A DNA stretch of 64,000 nt from Ostreococcus lucimarinus (Eukaryota): NCBI GenBank assembly GCA_000092065.1, contig CP000593.1, one strand, 5' to 3'. Positions 10,634 to 41,700 of the stretch are shown piece after piece. Below the pieces are notes generated by a model. It saw nothing but the letters and a program-made list of their open reading frames with translations, was not told the origin of the DNA and did not search any database. Position 1 is the first letter of the stretch; each line of letters opens with the position of its first letter. Position numbers and translations under genes: made by a program.

Positions 10634-10796
10634 CTACGCACATCGATTTCAACATCGCCGTCAGTCGTTCGGTCAACAGAGTCAACGCCGCGCCGCGTTC
10701 GCGCGAAATCCAACAGATCACCGTCACCGCGCATCTCTCACGCGCCGCCGTGACGCGCGAAACCGCGATGTATCGACGAAACGATCGTACACGCAC
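10634..10796 (-). other. CCT6: Intron of CCT6 (163 nt, phase 1)
   Basis: The donor is GGAG|GTGCGTGT. An ACTGAC branch-like motif lies ~30 nt before the acceptor tgcgtAG. Splicing joins ...KMLVDGAGG to LKLTKDG..., exactly as in CCT-zeta orthologues. The summed exon lengths, 154 + 1451 = 1605 nt, are divisible by 3. Confidence 0.85.
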
Positions 10797-13567: not shown

Positions 13568-14181
13568 GCTGCGGCGTCCGCCGCGCGGGCCGTCGAGGCT
13601 GGGCGGCGTTCTGCTGATACTCACACTGTTTACCCATACGAAGACACATACTCTTGAGTCATGAACCGTCGACGAAACGCACGCGTCGACGCATCCTCGC
13701 GAAGACCCCAGGACGGCGGCGGCGCCATTCTTCGACGGTCAAAGGTGCGCCCGCGCGCGGCGAACGACGCGCGCGCGACGGCGATCGACGGACGCGGCGG
13801 TGGGAAATATTCGCGCGCGTCGCGGCGCGCGCGCGAGGGCGCGCGACGACGCGAGGGCGAGGCGATGCGGGCGCCGCGCGATCGATCGCGGACGACGATC
13901 GATCGCGGACGGCGCGCGGACGACGATCGGACGCGGTGACGCCGCGATGCGACGCGCGAGGCGTCGGTCGCGGATGGAAACGATCGGGAGGAATACGCGC
14001 GCGATGGATCGGGCGGCGCGGGACGCGCGCGAGGGTCGCGAGCGAGGGGGGGGGGCGAGGTTGACGATCGCGATCCGATGGCGGCGCGATGGCGGGAGGT
14101 TTGGACGCGGGACGAGGCGAGACGAGAGGAAGGGGGACTGACGATGCGCGCGTGGCTCGAAACAGTTGAAATAAACGCACA

Positions 14182-15585
14182 ATGTCTGAAGGCAAGGAAC
14201 ATCTTTCCATCGTGATCTGCGGTCACGTCGATTCCGGTAAGTCGACGACGACCGGTCGCTTGTTATTCGAGCTCGGGGGTATCCCGGAGCGCGAACTCGA
14301 AAAGCTTCGCGCCGAAGCCGATGCGCTCGGTAAGTCTTCTTTCGCGTTCGCGTTCTACATGGATCGCCAAAAGGAAGAGCGTGAGCGTGGTGTGACGATT
14401 TCTTGCACGACCAAGGAATTCTTCACGGACAAGTGGCACTACACCATCATCGACGCCCCGGGTCACCGCGATTTCATCAAGAACATGATTTCCGGCGCGG
14501 CGCAAGCCGATGTGGCGCTTCTCATGGTGCCGGCGGACGGTAACTTCACGGTCGCCATCCAAAAGGGTAACCACAAGGCTGGTGAAGTCCAAGGCCAAAC
14601 GCGCCAGCACGCGCGTCTTCTCAACTTGCTCGGCGTCAAGCAGCTCATTTGCGGCATCAACAAGATGGATTGCGACATGGCTGGCTACAAGCAAGAGCGT
14701 TACGAAGAAATTCGCAACGAAATGAAGAACATGTTGATCAAGGTCGGCTGGAAGAAGGATTACGTCGAGAAGAGCGTCCCGGTCCTCCCGATCTCTGGCT
14801 GGAACGGCGACAACTTGTTGTCCAAGTCCGCGAAGATGCCGTGGTGGAACGGCGTCGACGTCGAAGACTACATGGGCGGCGGCAAGAAGTTCCACATCGA
14901 CTGCCTCCTCAACGTCCTCAACGACATGGTCGACAAGCCGGACCGCAACACGGAAGCCGCCATGCGCCTTCCGATTTCCGGTGTCTACAAGATCAAGGGT
15001 GTCGGTGATGTCCTCGCCGGTCGCGTCGAGCAAGGTCTCGTCAAGCCGGGTGAAGACGTCGTCTTCCTCCCGACCCACACCTCCTCCAACCCGTGCGGTG
15101 GTAAGGTGTTCACCGTCGAAATGCACCACAAGCGCGTCGAAGCCGCCGCGCCGGGTGACAACGTCGGTATGAACATCAAGGGTCTCGACAAGCTCAACAT
15201 GCCGCGCACCGGTGACGTGATGATCTACAAGAAGGACACCTCCCTCGCCCCGTGCAAGGAGTTCACCGCGCAAATCCAAACCTTGGACATTCCGGGTGAA
15301 CTCAAGGCGGGCTACAGCCCCATCGGTTTCGTCCGATGCGGCCGCTCCGCGTGCAAGTTGACCGCGCTCAACTTCAAGGTTGGCAAGGAAACCGGCGGTA
15401 AGAAGCTCGAGTCCCCGATGTCGTTGAAGTCCAACGAAGTCGCCGAGTGCGTCTTCGAGCCGGTCCACCCGCTCGTCGTCGACTCCTTCAAGAAGTGCGA
15501 AGGTCTTTCCCGCATCGCTTTCTTGGACGGTAACACCGCCGTCATGTTGGGTAAGATCACCAAGGTTGAGTACAAGGCCATCTAA
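14182..15585 (+). CDS. EFL: Elongation factor-like GTPase EFL (EF-1alpha paralogue)
   Basis: MSEGKEHLSIVICGHVDSGKSTTTGRLLFELGG... contains the G1-G4 motifs. The sequence diverges from canonical EF-1alpha in the EFL-typical way. The ATG has an aaacgcacaATG context. Confidence 0.9.
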   Translation: MSEGKEHLSIVICGHVDSGKSTTTGRLLFELGGIPERELEKLRAEADALGKSSFAFAFYMDRQKEERERGVTISCTTKEFFTDKWHYTIIDAPGHRDFIKNMISGAAQADVALLMVPADGNFTVAIQKGNHKAGEVQGQTRQHARLLNLLGVKQLICGINKMDCDMAGYKQERYEEIRNEMKNMLIKVGWKKDYVEKSVPVLPISGWNGDNLLSKSAKMPWWNGVDVEDYMGGGKKFHIDCLLNVLNDMVDKPDRNTEAAMRLPISGVYKIKGVGDVLAGRVEQGLVKPGEDVVFLPTHTSSNPCGGKVFTVEMHHKRVEAAAPGDNVGMNIKGLDKLNMPRTGDVMIYKKDTSLAPCKEFTAQIQTLDIPGELKAGYSPIGFVRCGRSACKLTALNFKVGKETGGKKLESPMSLKSNEVAECVFEPVHPLVVDSFKKCEGLSRIAFLDGNTAVMLGKITKVEYKAI

Positions 15586-15766: not shown

Positions 15767-17537
15767 CTACTTGGAAATCTTTGCACACGCGCGTTCGAGC
15801 CACGTTTTAGTCTCCCCCGACACTCGCGGGGAAATTTGTTGCCAAACTTTTTCGTGATACGCGTTCACCCACGCGATTTCTTTTTCACTCATAATGCTCA
15901 AGTCCATGAGTTTCGTTTGAATCGGGATCAACGTCAAGACGTCAAAGCATAAAAATCCAGTGTCTCCGAAGTTGTGCGCAGTCTTCGCCTCCTTCACTTG
16001 CAGAAGCGTCTCGATGCGGATACCGAACGCACCGTCTTCGTAATACCCCGGCTCGTTGCTCAAGATCATTCCTGGCATAAGGGGCGTCATGTTTCCAAAA
16101 CGCGGAGAGATTCCTTGCGGACCTTCGTGCACGTTGAGCGCCGCGCCGACGCCGTGGCCGGTGCCGTGACGGTAATCCAAGCCGTTGGCCCACAGGTGCG
16201 ATCGCGCAAAGGCGTCGAGAACGAAACCTTTCGTGCCGACAGGGAAAACCATTTGGTCGAGTGCGATGTGACCTTGGAGCACGCGCGTGTAGCACTCCTT
16301 TTGATGAGCGGTGGGCGTTCCGAAGTGCACCGTTCGAGTGACATCCGTCGTGCCACACGCGTACTGGCCGCCGCTGTCGCAGAGTAATAAGCTGTCCTTA
16401 CCGATAGCCCTCGCGCTCTTTTTCGAAGCACGGTAGTGCACCACGGCGCCATGAGGACCTTCACCCGCGATCGTCGGGAACGATTCTTCGAAGAAACCGT
16501 TTTGCTTGGCTCGGCACGCCAAGACCCTCTCGCCAGCTTCGTACTCGTCAATGGCGCGCCCCTCGGCGACGTCTCGCTCGATCGCGCACCAGAATTCAGC
16601 CATCGCAGCGCCATCCATGAGGTGGGCTTCGACCATACCGGCCATCTCGGCCTCATTCTTCACCGCCTTTGCGATCGGGACCGGACACGTGCCCTCCTTG
16701 ATGGCGGACGGCGCGCTCTCCGTCTTCACCTTTTTCGCATCCTTGGGCGCTTCGGCGGCTCCGGCTTCAGCCTGTTCGAGCATGGCGATGGAGACCTTAT
16801 CGACGTCCATCCAGAGTCGCTCACCGCGCTGTGCCGCGGCATACACGTCTTTGGCCATGTCTTCGTACGGCTTGATCGTCACGTTTGCCTCGGCGAGATG
16901 CGCCACGACTTCAGGCGTCGCCTTGTCCGTGTCGACGTAAAACGAAGCGTCGTTTTCACCCACCAAGACGTAAGACAACGTCACCGGATTACACGGTGCA
17001 TCACCGCCTCGAACATTGCATAGCCACATGACGTCATCCAACGAGCTCACGACGAGCTTCTGCGCGTCGTTTTCCTTCATTTTTTCTCGAAGGTTTTCCA
17101 ATTTTTCCGCCACGCTCTTCCCCGCGTACTCCATCGGGTGCACTCTGAGCGGCGTCTTCGGGAACGGTGGACGATCGCTCCAAACCAAATCTACCAAGTT
17201 CTCTTCGACGCTCATCAACTCGATCCCGCACGCGCTCAACGCTTCTCTCAAACCTCGCGCCTCGCTCACCGAGTGCACGTTTGGATCGATGCCCACCTTG
17301 GCTCCGGTAAACGCCAGTCCCGCCTCCTCCGCGCACAACCACTTCTTCACGTCCGGCACATCCTTCACCCCACTTCGCATCAGAGTCCAGTCCTCGCTCA
17401 GCTCGTCTTCAGCCTGCACGAAATACCGTCCATCCGTCCACAACAACGCCGCCGCGTCCGTCACCACCACCGTCCCCGCCGACCCCGTAAAATCGCTCAA
17501 CCATCGTCGTCGCTCGAAGCACGCCGCCACGTACTCA
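15767..17537 (-). CDS. Xaa-Pro aminopeptidase (aminopeptidase P, M24B), exon 2
   Basis: SEYVAACFERRRWLSDFTGSAGTVVVTD...HGTGHGVGAALNVHEGPQGI...NEPGYYEDGAFGIRIETLL aligns with APP1/XPNPEP1 from residue ~40 onward. The ORF track begins it at an in-frame GTG, and no in-frame ATG lies upstream before a stop. Confidence 0.85.
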
Positions 17538-17641
17538 CTGCGTTCCCCACAAAAACACGCCCTCGCCCGTTCGTCAGTCTTTCCCGTCGCGCGCGTCGTC
17601 GTTCCTCGTTTCGTTCGTTCGCCTTCGCTTCGCCGACGCGC
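17538..17641 (-). other. Intron of the aminopeptidase P gene (104 nt, phase 2, apparent GC-AG)
   Basis: Exon 1 ends ...CCG CAC TTT AG| and is followed by gcgcgtcgg. Exon 2 begins after ...ggggaacgcag|T GAG TAC. ACTGAC lies ~45 nt before the acceptor. Splicing gives PSQDPHF-S-EYVAAC, aligning with human PSGDAHQSEYIAPC. No GT donor is available in the required phase. Confidence 0.55.
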
Positions 17642-17751
17642 CTAAAGTGCGGATCCTGCGACGGCACGACGACCGCTCGCACCCCTCGCTTCGCCATCGC
17701 CTCTCGCACCGCCGCGAGCTTCGACGCGTTCGAGCGTTCGCCCGTCGTCAT
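17642..17751 (-). CDS. Xaa-Pro aminopeptidase, exon 1
   Basis: MTTGERSNASKLAAVREAMAKRGVRAVVVPSQDPHF matches the APP N-terminus, compare human ...LRQLRQAM...AYIIPSGDAHQ. An alternative upstream ATG at 17880 would add an organellar-like presequence. Confidence 0.6.
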
Positions 17752-18103
17752 GCTCGCTCGCTCGGCGATCGCGGCGTCGCGCGCGCGGGTCGTCGTTTTG
17801 AGTTTTCGAGCGGCGAGGCGACGCGATGACGTCGGCGTTCTCGCGGCGACGCGCGCGGCGACGAGACGCGCGGCGCGCATGCACGATTCGAACGCGCGCG
17901 TCGGTCGCGTCGGTCGCGTCGGTCCGTCCGTCGAGCCGGTGGCGCGCGCGGGAGTGACGACCGAGGCGCGCGCGGTCGACGCGCGTCGGTTGAATCGAAC
18001 GGCTGGTTGGTTCACGATTTCAAGCTTTACGACCGGGCGACGCGCCGCGAGACGATTCGGAACGCCGACGCCGTTCGAGGGCGACGACGACGACGCGGAC
18101 CGA

Positions 18104-20176
18104 CTAACAGCGCTCGAAAATTTTGTACAACTGCTCGAGGCACGCGATCTGAATGACGGTGCCGTCGTCGGCGAAACGACGAGGCGGGGCGAGACGGCGC
18201 TTCATCGCGGGAAAGACGCAGAGGCGAGCGACGCGACGAGCGTCGGACTCGGCGTCGCCTTCTTCGGCTTTCGGATCGTGGAAAGAGCAGTCCATGGCGA
18301 AAAATGCGCCGATGACTCGAGCGCAGGTTTCGAAGCACTCTTTTTCACTCGTCCAATCGACGTCTTCGGCGAGGGCGAGGACGAACTCGGGAAGTTTGCC
18401 GATTTCCGGCGCGTACCCGGGAAGCATCGACGGCACTCCGGTGATCTGACGCCGTTCCTTGTCGATGACGACGCCGAGATACTCCTTGAGCATGTCCGCC
18501 TTTTCGACGAGCATCTCTGCGATTTTCTCTGCGACTTCCTCCTTGGAGCCATCGCTCGCGTCCCACTCTTCGTCGTCGACGAATTTATCCTCCAGCGCGC
18601 ACAGCGCGAGTTCGGCCAAAGACGCGGGATCTTGCAGCGATTGGTACCCAAAGTTGGCGAAGTTCTTCAAAGCCATTTGATGGAACATTTCCTCGGTGAG
18701 CTTTACGGCGTCCACCATGAAGAGCTTGGTTTGGTGCTGAAGTAACCACACGCCTTTGCGCGCGTCCACGGCGCCGACGAGTGTGTGATTTTTAATCACG
18801 TCGCCGAGCTCCTTGTGCGCGCGATTGGCGATTTCGGTGTTAAGCTGGCGAATAGACGTCAACTCGCACACGTACGTGTCTTCGGGTTCCGTGCGCTGTC
18901 CTCGACGCTCTCTCACCGCGCGTCGAACCTCTTCTATTTTCTCGTGTTCGCGTCCCTCGGAATTCATCGCTCGCTGCAAGTACGCGTCCAAACTCCCCGC
19001 TGCTAAATTCGCATCCGTGCGAACGAGCTTGTGATCACCACCCGCGCGTTCGCGCTGTGTCCGCATCGTCTTCGCCTGCGACGCCGGCGGTTCGTCCGCT
19101 TTTTCGCTATTTTCCTTGTCGCCGCTTCGCTCGGCGTCGTTTTCGTCATCCTTCTTTGCCAGTTTCTCCGCGCCAGGAAGCAGTGTTTGCACGGTGAATG
19201 TTCGCGACGAATTCGTCGCGAGAAGAATCTTCTCTAGTTTGGACTGAATCAACTCCACAATGGCTTCTTGGTGCAGAAAGTGCACCTCCTGTTTCGTGGG
19301 ATGCACGTTGACGTCGACGTCTTCAAACGGCAGGCGGAGGTGCATGAATACAAACGGCTTCTCAGCCTTGGGGAGTATCGCCGCGTACACCGACTCACAC
19401 GCGCGCTTGAGCGGCGCGCACTCCACTAAACGCGAATTGATGAACAAAATGAACGTCGTCTTCTTTGAATGATAATTCCCACCGCTCACTAAACCGTCCA
19501 CTTGCAGCTTGAAATCAAACTTTTTCTTGGACAGCTCGCTGTCGAAGTCGAGCTTCTTCAAATCTCTCGCCACCGTGGGACCGTAAATCGCCTGCAACCG
19601 CTCGACGCGCGATTGCGCCACGGGAGTGTGCAACGTCGCTCGCGACTCACCGTGCTTCCGACACGTGAACGCCACATCCGTTCGCAACGCCGCGTACCTC
19701 TGCAACACCTCGAGCACTTTCGAGTACTCCTCTGACGCGCTCTTCAACGCCTTCCTTCGAGTCACGACGTTATAAAACAAGTTCTCCACGCTAATCGTAG
19801 TTCCTAACACCCCCGCGATCGGTTTCGCCCCCTCCGCATCCATCTTCCCATCCGTATACGTCGCTCGAGTCGCGTGCGTCGCCCCCGCCGCCATCGTCGT
19901 CGCCGACACGTGCGCCACGTAGCTCATGCTCGCCAGCGCCTCTCCTCGAAACCCAAAGCTCTCGCATCGCGCTAAATCCTCAAACTTTTCAATCTTACTC
20001 GTCGCGTGTCGCTCGCACAGCAGCGGCAAGTCCTCTATTCGCACTCCGTGTCCGTCGTCTTGCACTCGCAACAGTTTATTCCCGCCCTCCCTCGTCGTCA
20101 CCGCGATCGACTTCGCGCCCGCGTCCAACGAGTTCTCCACCAGCTCTTTCAGCGCGTTCGACGGTCGATGGATCAC
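18104..20176 (-). CDS. MLH1: DNA mismatch repair protein MLH1, exon 2
   Basis: VIHRPSNALKELVENSLDAGAKSIAV...GFRGEALASMSYVAHV... is the GHKL ATPase domain. The C-terminus ends in the MLH1-specific ...LYKIFERC. Confidence 0.9.
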   Translation of the reverse strand: MIHRPSNALKELVENSLDAGAKSIAVTTREGGNKLLRVQDDGHGVRIEDLPLLCERHATSKIEKFEDLARCESFGFRGEALASMSYVAHVSATTMAAGATHATRATYTDGKMDAEGAKPIAGVLGTTISVENLFYNVVTRRKALKSASEEYSKVLEVLQRYAALRTDVAFTCRKHGESRATLHTPVAQSRVERLQAIYGPTVARDLKKLDFDSELSKKKFDFKLQVDGLVSGGNYHSKKTTFILFINSRLVECAPLKRACESVYAAILPKAEKPFVFMHLRLPFEDVDVNVHPTKQEVHFLHQEAIVELIQSKLEKILLATNSSRTFTVQTLLPGAEKLAKKDDENDAERSGDKENSEKADEPPASQAKTMRTQRERAGGDHKLVRTDANLAAGSLDAYLQRAMNSEGREHEKIEEVRRAVRERRGQRTEPEDTYVCELTSIRQLNTEIANRAHKELGDVIKNHTLVGAVDARKGVWLLQHQTKLFMVDAVKLTEEMFHQMALKNFANFGYQSLQDPASLAELALCALEDKFVDDEEWDASDGSKEEVAEKIAEMLVEKADMLKEYLGVVIDKERRQITGVPSMLPGYAPEIGKLPEFVLALAEDVDWTSEKECFETCARVIGAFFAMDCSFHDPKAEEGDAESDARRVARLCVFPAMKRRLAPPRRFADDGTVIQIACLEQLYKIFERC

Positions 20177-20306
20177 CTGCGCGCGCGTTCGGTCGTCGCG
20201 TCGTCTCGCGTCGTCAGTCGCGCGTTCGCGTCGTCCGTCGTCGAGCTGACGTTCAAACATTCAATCTCTCATCGCGCGCGCCGTCGCGCGCCGGCCCTCG
20301 ACGCAC
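20177..20306 (-). other. MLH1: Intron of MLH1 (130 nt, phase 0)
   Basis: The donor is GAG|GTGCGTCGAG. ACTGAC lies ~35 nt upstream of the acceptor gcgcgCAG|GTGATC. The apparent ORF start MFERQLDD... lies inside this intron. Confidence 0.75.
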
Positions 20307-20402
20307 CTCTCCCGCGGCGACGCGATTGACGACGTCGCTCGGCAGGCGCCCGATGGCGCGCGGCGTCGACGCGCCGTCGCGCGCGCCGTCACCGCGCGTC
20401 AT
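20307..20402 (-). CDS. MLH1: MLH1, exon 1 (32 codons)
   Basis: MTRGDGARDGASTPRAIGRLPSDVVNRVAAGE aligns with the universally conserved MutL N-terminus IRRLDETVVNRIAAGE. Splicing restores ...AAGE|VIHRPSNA. Confidence 0.75.
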
Positions 20403-20476
20403 GACGAATCCTTTCGCCGCACACCGCGTCGCGCTCTGCCGCGCGCGCGCCGTCGGGCGCGCCCGCGCGTCGACGC

Positions 20477-21454
20477 ATGCGCGCCGCCGCCCGCGCGCGC
20501 TCGCCCGCGCGCTCGAGCGCGCCCGCGCGCGCCGTCGCGCGCCGTCGACCGGCGCCGATTCGCCGCCGCCGCGCCGCGCGCGCCGACGCGACCGCGACGC
20601 GCTCGAGCGCCGACGACCGCGACGCGCTCGACGCGTTCGCGCGCGCGACGCCGCGCGCGACGCGCGCGTTCGAGCTCCTGCGCGAAAGCCGACGCGCGAT
20701 CGACGCGGAGGCGATGACGGCGATGTGCTACGTCGGCGCGATTCGGCGTCGGCGCGCGACGCGCGGCGAGACGGCGTGCGTCGCGAAGATTTGTGAACGG
20801 TGGAGCGCGCGCGTCGGCGGGCGACTGGGACGCGTGCGAGCGTCGCTGGAGGCGGAGGATGGGTCGGCGGCGGCGCGAGCGGTGGCGAGGGAGGTGGGAA
20901 AGTGCGAGGCGGAGGCGACGGCGCTCGCGCGGCGATTCGCGCACGAGGCGATCGAGGCGACGGAGGCGTTCGAGACGCGCGAGGCGGCGGACGACGCGAC
21001 GACGTCCGAGGCGCGCGGTGACGGTGACGGTGACGGTGACGGTGACGGCGTGAATGGGATACCGGAGAAGTGGCGCATGGCGTGCGGGAACGTGAACGGA
21101 TACTTGGAGTACGCGGGGGCGACGTTGACGTTTGAGGAGTGGGCGCGGGTGCGCGAGGCGTTCGACGCCGTCGTGACGGAGGTGGACGGGGACGACGCGA
21201 GCGCGCGGTACGTGCGCGACGATGGGAATTGGAACGCGATGAAGGCGATGATGGATGATTCCGTCGTGCGACCGAGAAGGCTGTCGCAGGTGGAGAATAA
21301 CGCGCGGTACGCGAACGCCAAAGCCGAGCTCGACGAGGCGAAAAAGGCGTGGAAGGAGGCGAACGAAATTTACAAGGACGCGCGAAGGAGAATTAAGCAG
21401 GCCAGGCACGAGGTGCACAAAACGCGCAAGGCGGTGAGAATAGAGTACAGATGA
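20477..21454 (+). CDS. Hypothetical protein (Arg/Ala-rich N-terminus, internal (GD)n repeat, K/E-rich C-terminus)
   Basis: The ORF is 325 aa and starts with ATG. The C-terminal half (...NGIPEKWRMACGNVNGYLEYAGATLTFEEWARVREAFD...KAELDEAKKAWKEANEIYKDARRRIKQARHEVHKTRKAVRIEYR) has a normal composition. The opposite-strand ORF is pure R-rich and looks antisense. I see no recognisable domain. Confidence 0.4.
   Translation: MRAAARARSPARSSAPARAVARRRPAPIRRRRAARADATATRSSADDRDALDAFARATPRATRAFELLRESRRAIDAEAMTAMCYVGAIRRRRATRGETACVAKICERWSARVGGRLGRVRASLEAEDGSAAARAVAREVGKCEAEATALARRFAHEAIEATEAFETREAADDATTSEARGDGDGDGDGDGVNGIPEKWRMACGNVNGYLEYAGATLTFEEWARVREAFDAVVTEVDGDDASARYVRDDGNWNAMKAMMDDSVVRPRRLSQVENNARYANAKAELDEAKKAWKEANEIYKDARRRIKQARHEVHKTRKAVRIEYR
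21008..21048. repeat. (GTGACG)n hexanucleotide microsatellite encoding (GD)n
   Basis: gtgacggtgacggtgacggtgacggtgacggc lies within the hypothetical gene above. Confidence 0.6.
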
Positions 21455-21510
21455 TGACGATGACAATCCGCGGTACGAGTAGTAGTTTTGTAAGGTGACG
21501 CGTACGACAT

Positions 21511-23319
21511 CTAAGGACGAGACGTCTTCAAAACCTCGACGCACCAGTTGCCGTGATCGTAATACGCCGCCGTGACCTCGCACCAAGGAAGGTTTTCAAA
21601 CAGCTTTGGAAGCTCACCCTCGGTGTACACGTGACAATATCGCTGATACACAACCGATCGTTTCTCGCGATCGGCCTCACCGTGCGTGGGCGCGCCGCTC
21701 ACGCGCGATTGGCGCTCTCGCTCGTCCTCGGGCGCGACGCCCTTGACTTTGATCTTGTTATGAAACGGCACCAAGACGTCTTGGCCTTCAAATTGGTGAC
21801 CAGAAACCCCCCCTTGCTCTTGCTCGAGCGCCCAGGCGTAGAATAATGCGACACCACCAACCTTGACGATGCGCATCGTTTCCTTTACGAGCTCCACGCG
21901 ACGTTCGGGAGACGATATGTGATGCAACACGGCGATGTTGAGCGCGTAGTCGAACACGTCGGATCGATACGGCAAAATAACGGCGTCGGCCACCATTACC
22001 TCGTATCCGCTATCGCGACAGATTTCAATCAAGCCTCTGCTAAAGTCGCTTCCGAGCGCGAAACCACCGCCCTTGACGATTTCGGGAATGTTCTTACCGT
22101 TGCCGCATCCGACGTCCGCGGCGAGCAAACCGGGCGGCTGTTTCCTAACGAAAGCCTCCACCCCGGTCCACGCGCGATACCTCGTGCCGTGCCATTGCTG
22201 CGCGACGATATCGTACACCTTCTGCACGTGCTCGCGCTCGACTTCGGGCATCGCTGTCACCTTTTCCGCGGCGTCTATGAAATTTTCTGGCACCACGGCG
22301 CACGCTCGCTTGGGCGGCTTCTTCACCAACTCTGTCGCCGTCGTCCCTGCGTTCGACACGCTCGTTTTTACGGACGGCGACGGATTCTTCCTCGTCGCCT
22401 CTTCCATTTCGAGCGCATCCGACCGCTTACCTTCCTTGCGCAACTGTTTCGCCTTCTTACGCTCCTCTCGCGCCGCCTTGATCGCCGCCCTCTCGGCGGC
22501 GATGCTCTCGCGTCGTCTCTGCTCCTCGGAAACTTCCTTGGGTTCCTTCAACGAATCGTCTCGACCGACCGCGCGCTTTTCCCTATACATCGCTCGAAAC
22601 TGCTCCGTCATCGCCATCTGCGCCGCGATCGCGTCGCCTTCGGTATTCGCCGCCATTCGTCGTCTAAACGTGAGCGAAATCCTATCCTCGCTCACGGGCG
22701 GAATCGCGTGCTCGTACTCGTCCGCCGCCCTTCCCTCCATGCGCACCGCCGATTTCGCCGGAAGCACCACCCTGAACTCCTCCCCCTCATAAACGACCCC
22801 CGGATCCGGTTTTTCGTCCCCACTCGGCCACAGCATCCCTCGCCCCATCGTCATCGTCTGCGCGCTCGCCAACGAAACCGTCACAAACGGCCGCGCGAAC
22901 GTCGGATTATCGATGTGCGGCGGTATCCACTGTCCCTTCCCGTACACGTTCACCGTGCACGAATCCATCTTTTCATCCTTCCCGATCACCCCTCTCGCCA
23001 CCAGCGCGTCCAGCACGTCTTCAAACATCGCCGGCATCGCCGCTACGCGCGTCTCCGCGTCCACTCGGTTACTGTGCGTGTACGTCCCGTACTGCAGCAT
23101 CTCCCTCGACTGATCCCTTCGCGCCCACTTCGGCGGCACCGGCGCGTGCGTCTTACCCTCAAGCTCCCCTCGCCGTCCTCGCTCGAGCTCTTCCGCGACC
23201 CACGCGCACACCGCGTCGTGCAAACCGTCGTCGACGGCGTCTCGAAAGACCTCGGCGCCGATCGTTTCGACGTCCGCGCGCGTCGCGCGCGCCGCGGCCG
23301 ACGCGCCGGACGCCGTCAT
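21511..23319 (-). CDS. ALKBH8-like bifunctional protein: AlkB-type 2OG-Fe(II) dioxygenase fused to a Trm9-type tRNA (mcm5U) methyltransferase
   Basis: The N-terminal half has ...QWIPPHIDNPTFARPFVTVSLAS...ISLTFRR, an AlkB-like double-stranded beta-helix. The C-terminal half has ...LLAADVGCGNGKNIP...ALNIAVLHHI...GGVALFYAWALEQE, a class I SAM MTase Trm9/ALKBH8-like motif I and post-I. A K/E-rich linker sits between the two. Confidence 0.75.
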   Translation of the reverse strand: MTASGASAAARATRADVETIGAEVFRDAVDDGLHDAVCAWVAEELERGRRGELEGKTHAPVPPKWARRDQSREMLQYGTYTHSNRVDAETRVAAMPAMFEDVLDALVARGVIGKDEKMDSCTVNVYGKGQWIPPHIDNPTFARPFVTVSLASAQTMTMGRGMLWPSGDEKPDPGVVYEGEEFRVVLPAKSAVRMEGRAADEYEHAIPPVSEDRISLTFRRRMAANTEGDAIAAQMAMTEQFRAMYREKRAVGRDDSLKEPKEVSEEQRRRESIAAERAAIKAAREERKKAKQLRKEGKRSDALEMEEATRKNPSPSVKTSVSNAGTTATELVKKPPKRACAVVPENFIDAAEKVTAMPEVEREHVQKVYDIVAQQWHGTRYRAWTGVEAFVRKQPPGLLAADVGCGNGKNIPEIVKGGGFALGSDFSRGLIEICRDSGYEVMVADAVILPYRSDVFDYALNIAVLHHISSPERRVELVKETMRIVKVGGVALFYAWALEQEQGGVSGHQFEGQDVLVPFHNKIKVKGVAPEDERERQSRVSGAPTHGEADREKRSVVYQRYCHVYTEGELPKLFENLPWCEVTAAYYDHGNWCVEVLKTSRP

Positions 23320-33961: not shown

Positions 33962-34535
33962 GCGAAACCGCCATGAACTTTCGACGCGCGACGTGACCTT
34001 TGGGCGCCACGCGCGCCCGGAGACGGCGCGCGCGCGTCGGCACGACGCGACGCTCGAGGACGCGGGAGACGCGCGATGTCGCCGCCGACGCCGCGCGACG
34101 TCGATCGCCCGTCCCCGCGCGCGCCCGCGCCGAGACGCGCGACGCGAGGCGACGACGACGCGGGAGACGACGGCGTCGCCGTCACGCGCGCGAATGCGAA
34201 AAATGAAAATGAAGCGAATGCGAATCGAACGGCGCGCGCGTCGACGACGCGCGAGGACGCGCGCGAGGCGAACGGGAACGATGGGAAAACCGCTCGAGAG
34301 CCGACGAGGGTGCGCGCGACGCGCGAACGGGCGATGCGATGGCGACGGGAGGGAAACATTCGGGAGATGGGCGATCTTTCAAACGGCTGGTGATTTTGAA
34401 AGATTTTTTAAACGCGAGGACGCGAAGACGCGAGGGCGATCGGGGCGCGGTGAAGGCGCGCGAGAGACTGACGAAGGCGCGAAACGTGGATTTTTAACGT
34501 CGCAGAGCGCGTCGTACGAGTCGAGCGAACGACCG

Positions 34536-41463: not shown

Positions 41464-41577
41464 TTGTGCGTATGCATAAACAGTCTTCCTTAACTCAGCT
41501 GGTAGAGTGTCAGACTGTTAGGAAAAAGTCTCCGTCGAATATGACGGCTGCTCCGATAGAGATCTGGAAGCCGCGGG
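41464..41577 (+). tRNA. tRNA-Asn(GUU)-like sequence with a 41-nt insertion (intron-like) between positions 37 and 38; possibly a pseudo-tRNA or SINE head
   Basis: The cloverleaf can be drawn by hand. Acceptor TCTTCCT pairs with AGGAAGA and the discriminator is G. D-arm ACTC-AGCTGGTA-GAGT has G18G19 and an A-box-like TAACTCAGCTGG. The anticodon stem is TCAGA/TCTGG and the loop CTGTTA|A carries anticodon GTT. The T-arm GCGGG-ATCGAAA-CCCGC is B-box-like. T5 lies ~25 nt downstream. Unusual features are U1-A72 and A54. Confidence 0.4.
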
Positions 41578-41700
41578 ATCGAAACCCGCAGGAAGAGATG
41601 TGTCGACATCAAACCTTACTTTTTCCCATACCCGATTGTCCGTGATGGAAAAGCGACACGACAACACTGTGACTTTCGTCGTTTCGGGGTGACGGATAGT
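41464..41700 (+). mobile_element. tRNA-derived SINE-like repeat, copy 1 (full length with tRNA-like head)
   Basis: A ~222-nt body from gctggtagag to tatcgct is near-identical to 47434..47655. It ends in an A-rich tract (actttaaaaaatttatcgct) and is followed by T9 and a GC inverted repeat. Confidence 0.6.

Follow-up and report, generated by a model that had tools for sequence, protein, structure and literature searches.

In E. coli MutL, loop L1 (residues 2-20) reaches the ATP site of the partner subunit upon ATP-driven dimerisation. Bacterial mutL genes are not known to contain introns. The first intron of human MLH1 lies later than the site described here, after c.116 (codon 39), and not at AAGE|V. 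Nearer relatives have been annotated among the picoeukaryotic algae. The MLH1 of Ostreococcus tauri (XP_022840233.1 / CEG00174.1; CAID01000013.2, locus L001) is laid out in two exons separated by a phase-0 intron at AAGE|VIH, with the boundaries gcgggagag|GTGCGCG...AACTGAC...GTAG|gtgataca; an older model of the same gene, OUS46336.1 (595 aa), is N-terminally truncated. In the v2 annotation of O. tauri, which was guided by RNA-seq and curated by hand, 89% of the introns are RNA-seq validated (PMC4378021). The MLH1 of Bathycoccus prasinos (XP_007513736.1) also carries a single annotated intron at the identical codon boundary, GAG|GT...AG|GTC ATC; this intron differs in being 322 nt long and AT-rich (38% GC) and in starting with GTACTAC, and the upstream neighbour of the gene is a different one (Methyltransf_PK). 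For O. lucimarinus itself, the EST-confirmed introns outside chromosome 2 have been characterized: 87% contain ACTGAC, 66.5% the extended form GACTGACG, and their 5' consensus is the atypical GTGCGTG (Irimia & Roy 2008, PMC2483917).

Region 18104..20402 of the 64-kb stretch of O. lucimarinus DNA analysed here (the window) is almost certainly, as read from its letters, the 5' end and body of an ordinary MLH1 gene, encoded by two exons of the minus strand, from which a 130-nt intron would be spliced out. The start codon ATG (20402..20400, minus strand) opens exon 1 (20307..20402, minus strand), 96 nt long, made of this ATG and 31 codons (MTRGDGARDGASTPRAIGRLPSDVVNRVAAGE) and terminated by GAG|GTGCGT at 20307|20306. 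The GT..AG intron that follows (20177..20306, minus strand) is in phase 0, with GTGCGTC as 5' splice site and GCAG at its 3' end. It harbors the branch-point motif GACTGACG (20212..20219, minus strand), a sequence match to the published extended consensus, and the presumed branch A at 20214 stands 37 nt from the 3' splice site. Directly after GCAG comes GTGATCCAT, the boundary reading CAG|GTGATC, and exon 2 extends over 18104..20176 (minus strand), from VIHRPSNALKEL... to ...KIFERC and the stop codon. Joining 20307 to 20176 keeps the frame, reads ...VVNRVAAGEVIHRPSNALKEL... across the junction and yields a 722-aa MLH1; when exon 1 is read without splicing, a stop is met at codon 50, inside the intron. 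Removal of the GT...AG segment restores both the reading frame and the conserved protein, as for a U2-type intron. The original prediction is therefore borne out in its main elements: the 32-codon first exon ending in GAG|GTGCGT, the intron of exactly 130 nt (20306..20177) that contains ACTGAC and ends in CAG|GTGATC, and the recovery of the conserved MutL N-terminus, in frame, when the two exons are joined.

In the mechanism that these elements suggest, transcription of MLH1 would begin slightly upstream of the ATG at 20402. The spliceosome would then excise 20306..20177 with the help of the GTGCGTC 5' site, the GACTGACG branch point and the CAG 3' site, joining codon 32 (GAG, Glu) to the GTG (Val) of exon 2. 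The 722-aa protein thus formed would bear a complete MutL N-terminus, ...RLPSDVVNRVAAGEVIHRP....

The spliced product is identical, over 722/722 residues, to XP_001421130.1 / ABO99423.1, a 'predicted protein' of O. lucimarinus CCE9901 (UniRef100_A4S6Q2). There is no sequence difference from this record, the name of which does not say MLH1, and the annotated CDS must therefore use the same ATG, exon 1 and intron. The two-exon model is thus correct but already known, the public annotation of O. lucimarinus having included it from the publication of the genome onwards; this reference model may itself be an ab initio or homology-based prediction. The first exon, termed cryptic in the original prediction, is real, but it is hidden only from ORF-based reading and from prokaryote-style callers, being already publicly annotated. 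With its relatives annotated in the same way, the gene structure carries little biological weight. It serves rather as a worked example for picoeukaryotes with few introns: where the first exon is short and an intron follows close to the 5' end, ORF-based or prokaryote-style gene calling cuts off a functionally needed N-terminus.

The domain content of the spliced protein is that of a complete MLH1. Pfam identifies HATPase_c_3 (GHKL ATPase) at residues 38-141 (E = 6.9e-12), DNA_mis_repair (PF01119, the ribosomal S5 domain 2-like transducer) at residues 227-350 (3.9e-29) and Mlh1_C (PF16413) over profile positions 1-264 of 264 (8.2e-81), the protein ending with ...LYKIFERC. Exon 2 holds the rest of the GHKL ATPase, DNA_mis_repair and Mlh1_C. 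Motif I (E-x-x-x-N) is found in exon 2 as KELVEN, the Glu and Asn of which we take to be the catalytic residues. The conserved extreme N-terminus, R-L-x-x-x-V-V-N-R-I/V-A-A-G-E (the L1 segment), is present only in the spliced product. The GHKL ATPase and transducer fold of human MLH1 and E. coli MutL is recognised by sequence: the N-terminal domain of human MLH1 (PDB ID 4p7a) is matched with E = 4e-105 from query residue 16, and E. coli MutL LN40 (PDB IDs 1b63 and 1bkn) at about 1e-51 from query residue 17. Query residues 16-32 align to human residues 8-24 and to the start of E. coli MutL, so that exon 1 corresponds to human residues 8-23 and to E. coli residues about 3-18, those of loop L1. 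As both structure matches start at residues 16/17, the exon-1 residues belong to the homologous domain, and exon 1 can be assigned by this homology to the N-terminal L1 segment of the MutL/GHKL ATPase domain.

How far could such an exon arise by chance? The region is about 70-78% GC, with long open frames on both strands, and a GC-rich open frame might fortuitously encode a MutL-like nonapeptide upstream of an ORF. The splice signals do not speak against such an accident: a composite, GTGCG[TC]-N40-400-ACTGAC-N8-45-YAG, occurs 4 times in the window (both strands) for 5.0 +/- 2.7 expected from first-order Markov simulations, and splice signals were rejected as stand-alone evidence, being at chance frequency. 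The protein sequence gives a different answer. From 40 distinct MLH1 N-termini, Ostreococcus and Bathycoccus excluded, a profile of 18 positions was derived and searched, filters off, against all 1,415 six-frame stop-to-stop fragments of the window (118,065 residues in total). It returned a single match, at 20348..20307, with E = 2.1e-5, the next best having E = 0.21. That the sole match in about 118,000 translated residues should fall exactly upstream of the ORF, on the same strand and in phase with a GT..AG pair, and that the arrangement should be reproduced in seven lineages, makes a chance resemblance so improbable that it can be neglected.

The support for the exon/intron model comes from coding conservation and not from the splice signals. 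Variation by codon position was compared in six Ostreococcus lineages over the final 16 codons of exon 1, the opening 16 of exon 2 and the intron ends. Variable sites at positions 1/2/3 number 5/3/13 in exon 1 and 5/2/11 in exon 2, while the intron ends display no periodicity (15/14/16 and 16/15/15). Mean pairwise identity is 74% in exon 1 and 84% in exon 2, compared to 33-38% in the intron ends. The third-position bias, together with this level of identity, indicates that exon 1 is under purifying selection as coding sequence.

A GC content of 62-78% also accounts for long spurious ORFs, which makes mechanical ORF lists unreliable in the O. lucimarinus genome. Two Arg/Ala-rich examples overlap the real genes here in other frames or on the other strand, at 20399..21586 (minus strand, 395 aa) and 20326..20796 (plus strand, 156 aa).

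The long ORF of the mechanical list (18104..20260, minus strand, 718 aa) begins with MFERQLDDGRRERATDDARRRDDRTRAQ, continues with VIHRPSNALKELVEN... and lacks the VVNR(I/V)AAGE block; taken alone, it has no conserved MutL N-terminus. It had been predicted that this ORF starts with MFERQLDD, skips the conserved block and has an intronic start; the ORF list confirms the first two points, and the false start codon (ATG, 20258..20260, minus strand) indeed falls within the intron 20306..20177. If the transcript were not spliced, the gene would be this 718-aa ORF and the VVNRVAAGE stretch a decaying old N-terminus. Such a reading can point to an ORF that is open from an ATG and that prokaryote-style callers repeatedly report in metagenomes (P0001 and cluster members). 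We nevertheless hold it to be very improbable, for several reasons: the five other Ostreococcus lineages lack the MFERQ ATG, and their introns contain no in-frame ATG open into exon 2; the 27 residues MFERQ...TRAQ are without any match in MLH1; the truncated protein would miss the L1 segment of the GHKL dimer interface; the variation of exon 1 is third-position-biased like that of exon 2, which argues for coding selection; and the site is spliced in all three reference annotations. The intron happens to contain an in-frame ATG, and this creates the MFERQ start, which appears only when an uninterrupted ORF is read.

Such readings have spread through sequence collections. A protein-collection search returned a 99%-identical, 718-aa cluster representative starting with MFERQ, a prokaryote-style call on a Logan sequencing-run assembly, and the same cluster contains XP_001421130.1 / ABO99423.1 (722 aa). 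For the other Ostreococcus lineages, prokaryote-style calls open with the GTG of VIHRP, giving 'MIHRP...'. Altogether, dozens of metagenome-derived 'MLH1' entries start with MFERQ.. or MIHRP.., or read through the intron. An instance of the latter is a 153-nt stop-free intron (L002:1177-1329, L003:760-912), which a metagenome caller translated into a 770-aa 'MLH1' with a 51-residue insert (P0180).

Returning to the two-exon gene, its intron was compared with those of related algae. Alignment of their MLH1 genes places an intron at the identical position, in phase 0 at AAGE|VIH, in five other Ostreococcus lineages and in Bathycoccus, hence in seven lineages with O. lucimarinus, with lengths of 118-322 nt. 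The O. tauri intron is 181 nt long, versus 130 nt in O. lucimarinus, and exon 1 has 23 codons instead of 32; the two proteins are about 76% identical. In metagenomic Ostreococcus, the same boundary is interrupted by 153 nt (L002/L003), 131 nt (L005/L006), 184 nt (L007) and 118 nt (L008). In-frame stops are found in six of the seven introns, and the lengths are mostly not multiples of 3. A MAFFT alignment of the six Ostreococcus introns has 46% column identity with many gaps, only the splice signals being held in common; a conserved element within the intron, considered as a candidate, was discarded on the basis of the same alignment.

A mixed situation may also be envisaged, in which the transcript is mostly spliced and intron retention or an internal start provides a minor, truncated MFERQ form of MLH1 with a regulatory or dominant-negative role. 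In O. lucimarinus, an ATG of the intron, 84 nt ahead of exon 2, is in frame and open into that exon; the 153-nt intron of lineage L002 is in frame and stop-free, so that its retention would insert 51 aa into an otherwise full-length protein; and an AT-rich TTTGAA patch is common to four of the six Ostreococcus introns. Against this, the internal ATG is not kept in the other lineages, the intronic 'peptide' is not conserved, the introns are unalignable, and an unrelated candidate intron elsewhere in the window has AT-rich patches too, which are probably a general intron feature. A second form of the protein is accordingly judged unlikely, with a slim chance at best. A similarly small chance is given to the idea that the apparently Bathycoccaceae-specific insertion at AAGE|V, which has stayed at one codon boundary in eukaryotic genomes that are among the most compact, may be retained for a function, either intron-mediated control of a gene with its ATG only 74 nt from that of a divergent neighbour, or regulated retention (yielding an L1-less MLH1 from the internal ATG), the TTTGAA patch being functional. 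The patches themselves, TTTGAA in four of the six introns and TTTTAA in a fifth (window 20251..20262, minus strand; L001, L002, L005, L007), are located 47-76 nt from the 5' splice site; by its background rate, TTTGAA would be met about 0.04 times in 150 nt of one strand, a figure to be read for a motif chosen after seeing the data. They may represent a general AT-rich feature of introns rather than one specific to MLH1.

Outside Ostreococcus and Bathycoccus, the AAGE|V intron is absent from the genes compared. The MLH1 of Micromonas commoda (CP001327.1) and M. pusilla (GG663743.1), with the N-terminus ...RLA(D/E)(E/D)VVNRVAAGEVIHRP..., are uninterrupted ORFs of 832 and 808 codons, respectively. 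In the trebouxiophyte [Myrmecia] bisecta, the coding sequence is uninterrupted over 45 codons from the ATG, past AAGE at 21-24, and in Marchantia polymorpha over 77 codons, past AAGE at 28-31. An ancient intron common to green plants was consequently rejected: the first introns of [Myrmecia] bisecta and Marchantia lie elsewhere, and Micromonas has none. The simplest reading is that the common ancestor of Bathycoccus and Ostreococcus gained the intron; on five outgroup points, it may also have been lost independently in the other groups. Shared by Ostreococcus and Bathycoccus and not by Micromonas, the intron is a small datum on intron gain and loss in Mamiellophyceae.

The annotated MLH1 proteins of Micromonas deserve a comment of their own. 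They have 640 aa in M. commoda (L010:1501-3999) and 743 aa in M. pusilla (L011:1501-3927), far less than the genomic ORFs, with which they agree only over the first 232 and 364 residues, respectively. Metagenome relatives, of 839-841 aa, retain the extra segments. The annotated 'introns' of Micromonas MLH1 may be low-complexity coding sequence that was wrongly removed.

As to its signals, the O. lucimarinus MLH1 intron compares closely with the non-chromosome-2 consensus: GTGCGTC agrees with GTGCGTG at 6/7 positions and the branch point GACTGACG is exact. In O. tauri, the orthologous locus lies on chromosome 13, and not on chromosome 2. On these sequence features, the intron can be classed as a typical member of the Ostreococcus 'non-chromosome-2' class. 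Other kinds of element were also considered and set aside. An RNA gene or structured element in the intron was rejected, with no Rfam match at E <= 1 and a fold that does not surpass those of shuffled sequences (z = -0.40); and an introner-like repeat, as in Micromonas, was rejected on a blastn search of the intron against the 64-kb window, which returned the intron itself and short GC-rich low-complexity matches.

Two scans of JGI metagenome contigs were performed for the exon1-exon2 junction, one exact (O. lucimarinus/O. tauri) and one degenerate (all Ostreococcus lineages), and neither found a junction in these largely genomic collections. Within a contig index of the same, largely genomic, nature, no called gene product corresponds to the 722-aa spliced protein. 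A search with the N-terminal protein sequence matched only unspliced or intron-less forms, and the spliced proteins of four other lineages have no exact entry in the protein collection, the material again being largely genomic. As the collections are largely genomic and the MLH1 mRNA is likely of low abundance, the absent junctions amount to an absence of data and not to contrary data.

A hypothetical gene encoding a 325-aa protein diverges from MLH1 (20477..21454, plus strand, from the ORF list); its product is a conserved Mamiellales protein to which Pfam assigns no family. Its orthologues adjoin MLH1 in O. tauri, in two other Ostreococcus lineages and in two Micromonas, with 33-47% identity; they share an invariant C-terminal ...ARH.VH..R.AVR.E.R, and their Arg/Ala-rich N-termini are poorly conserved. 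The exact 325-aa sequence is also found in metagenome gene calls, as 'hypothetical protein'. The head-to-head arrangement of the two genes is kept in Ostreococcus and Micromonas. It is embedded in a longer conserved block: over 15767..23319 of the window, gene order and orientation are those of O. tauri chromosome 13 (L001), with, successively, an EF-1-alpha-like gene, an M24 Xaa-Pro aminopeptidase, MLH1, the divergent hypothetical gene, and a fusion of 2OG-Fe(II) oxygenase and methyltransferase.

The starts of MLH1 and of the divergent gene, said to be only ~75 bp apart, are separated by 74 nt between the two ATGs (20403..20476). This spacer is the shortest of the set compared, the others measuring 103 nt (L005), 131 nt (L008), 208 nt (L002), 246 nt (O. 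tauri) and about 190-200 nt (Micromonas). It presumably serves as a shared bidirectional promoter and 5' UTR region, and, the genome being so compact, exon 1 may plausibly overlap the promoter of the divergent gene. To note, the O. tauri annotators dropped RNA-seq assembly because overlapping UTRs concatenated transcripts (PMC4378021).

Introns with similar signals are found elsewhere in the window. A second one, GTGCGTG...GACTGACG...TAG, is 163 nt long (10634..10796, minus strand) and interrupts a TCP-1/CCT chaperonin gene after about 52 codons; its removal restores a full-length product of 534 aa, which covers positions 1-488 of the 490 of the Cpn60_TCP1 profile (5e-162). The TCP-1 chaperonin is hence another gene with a short first exon that is truncated by ORF reading. 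A candidate of 421 nt, GTGCGC...GACTGACG...CAG (13745..14165, plus strand), ends 16 nt upstream of the ATG at 14182, which opens the gene of a 467-aa EF-1-alpha-like GTPase (GTP_EFTU at 2.9e-49). This candidate may be an intron in the 5' UTR of a highly expressed gene, or its signals may have matched by chance. Another candidate, of 196 nt, reads GTGCGCG...GACTGACG...GCAG (34310..34505, plus strand) and contains AT-rich patches (GATTTTGAAAGATTTTTTAAACG). Finally, ARAGORN reported no tRNA in the whole window, and Rfam matched a tRNA (49 bits, model positions 1-71) over 114 nt at 41484..41597 (plus strand), the implied intron being about 40 nt long.
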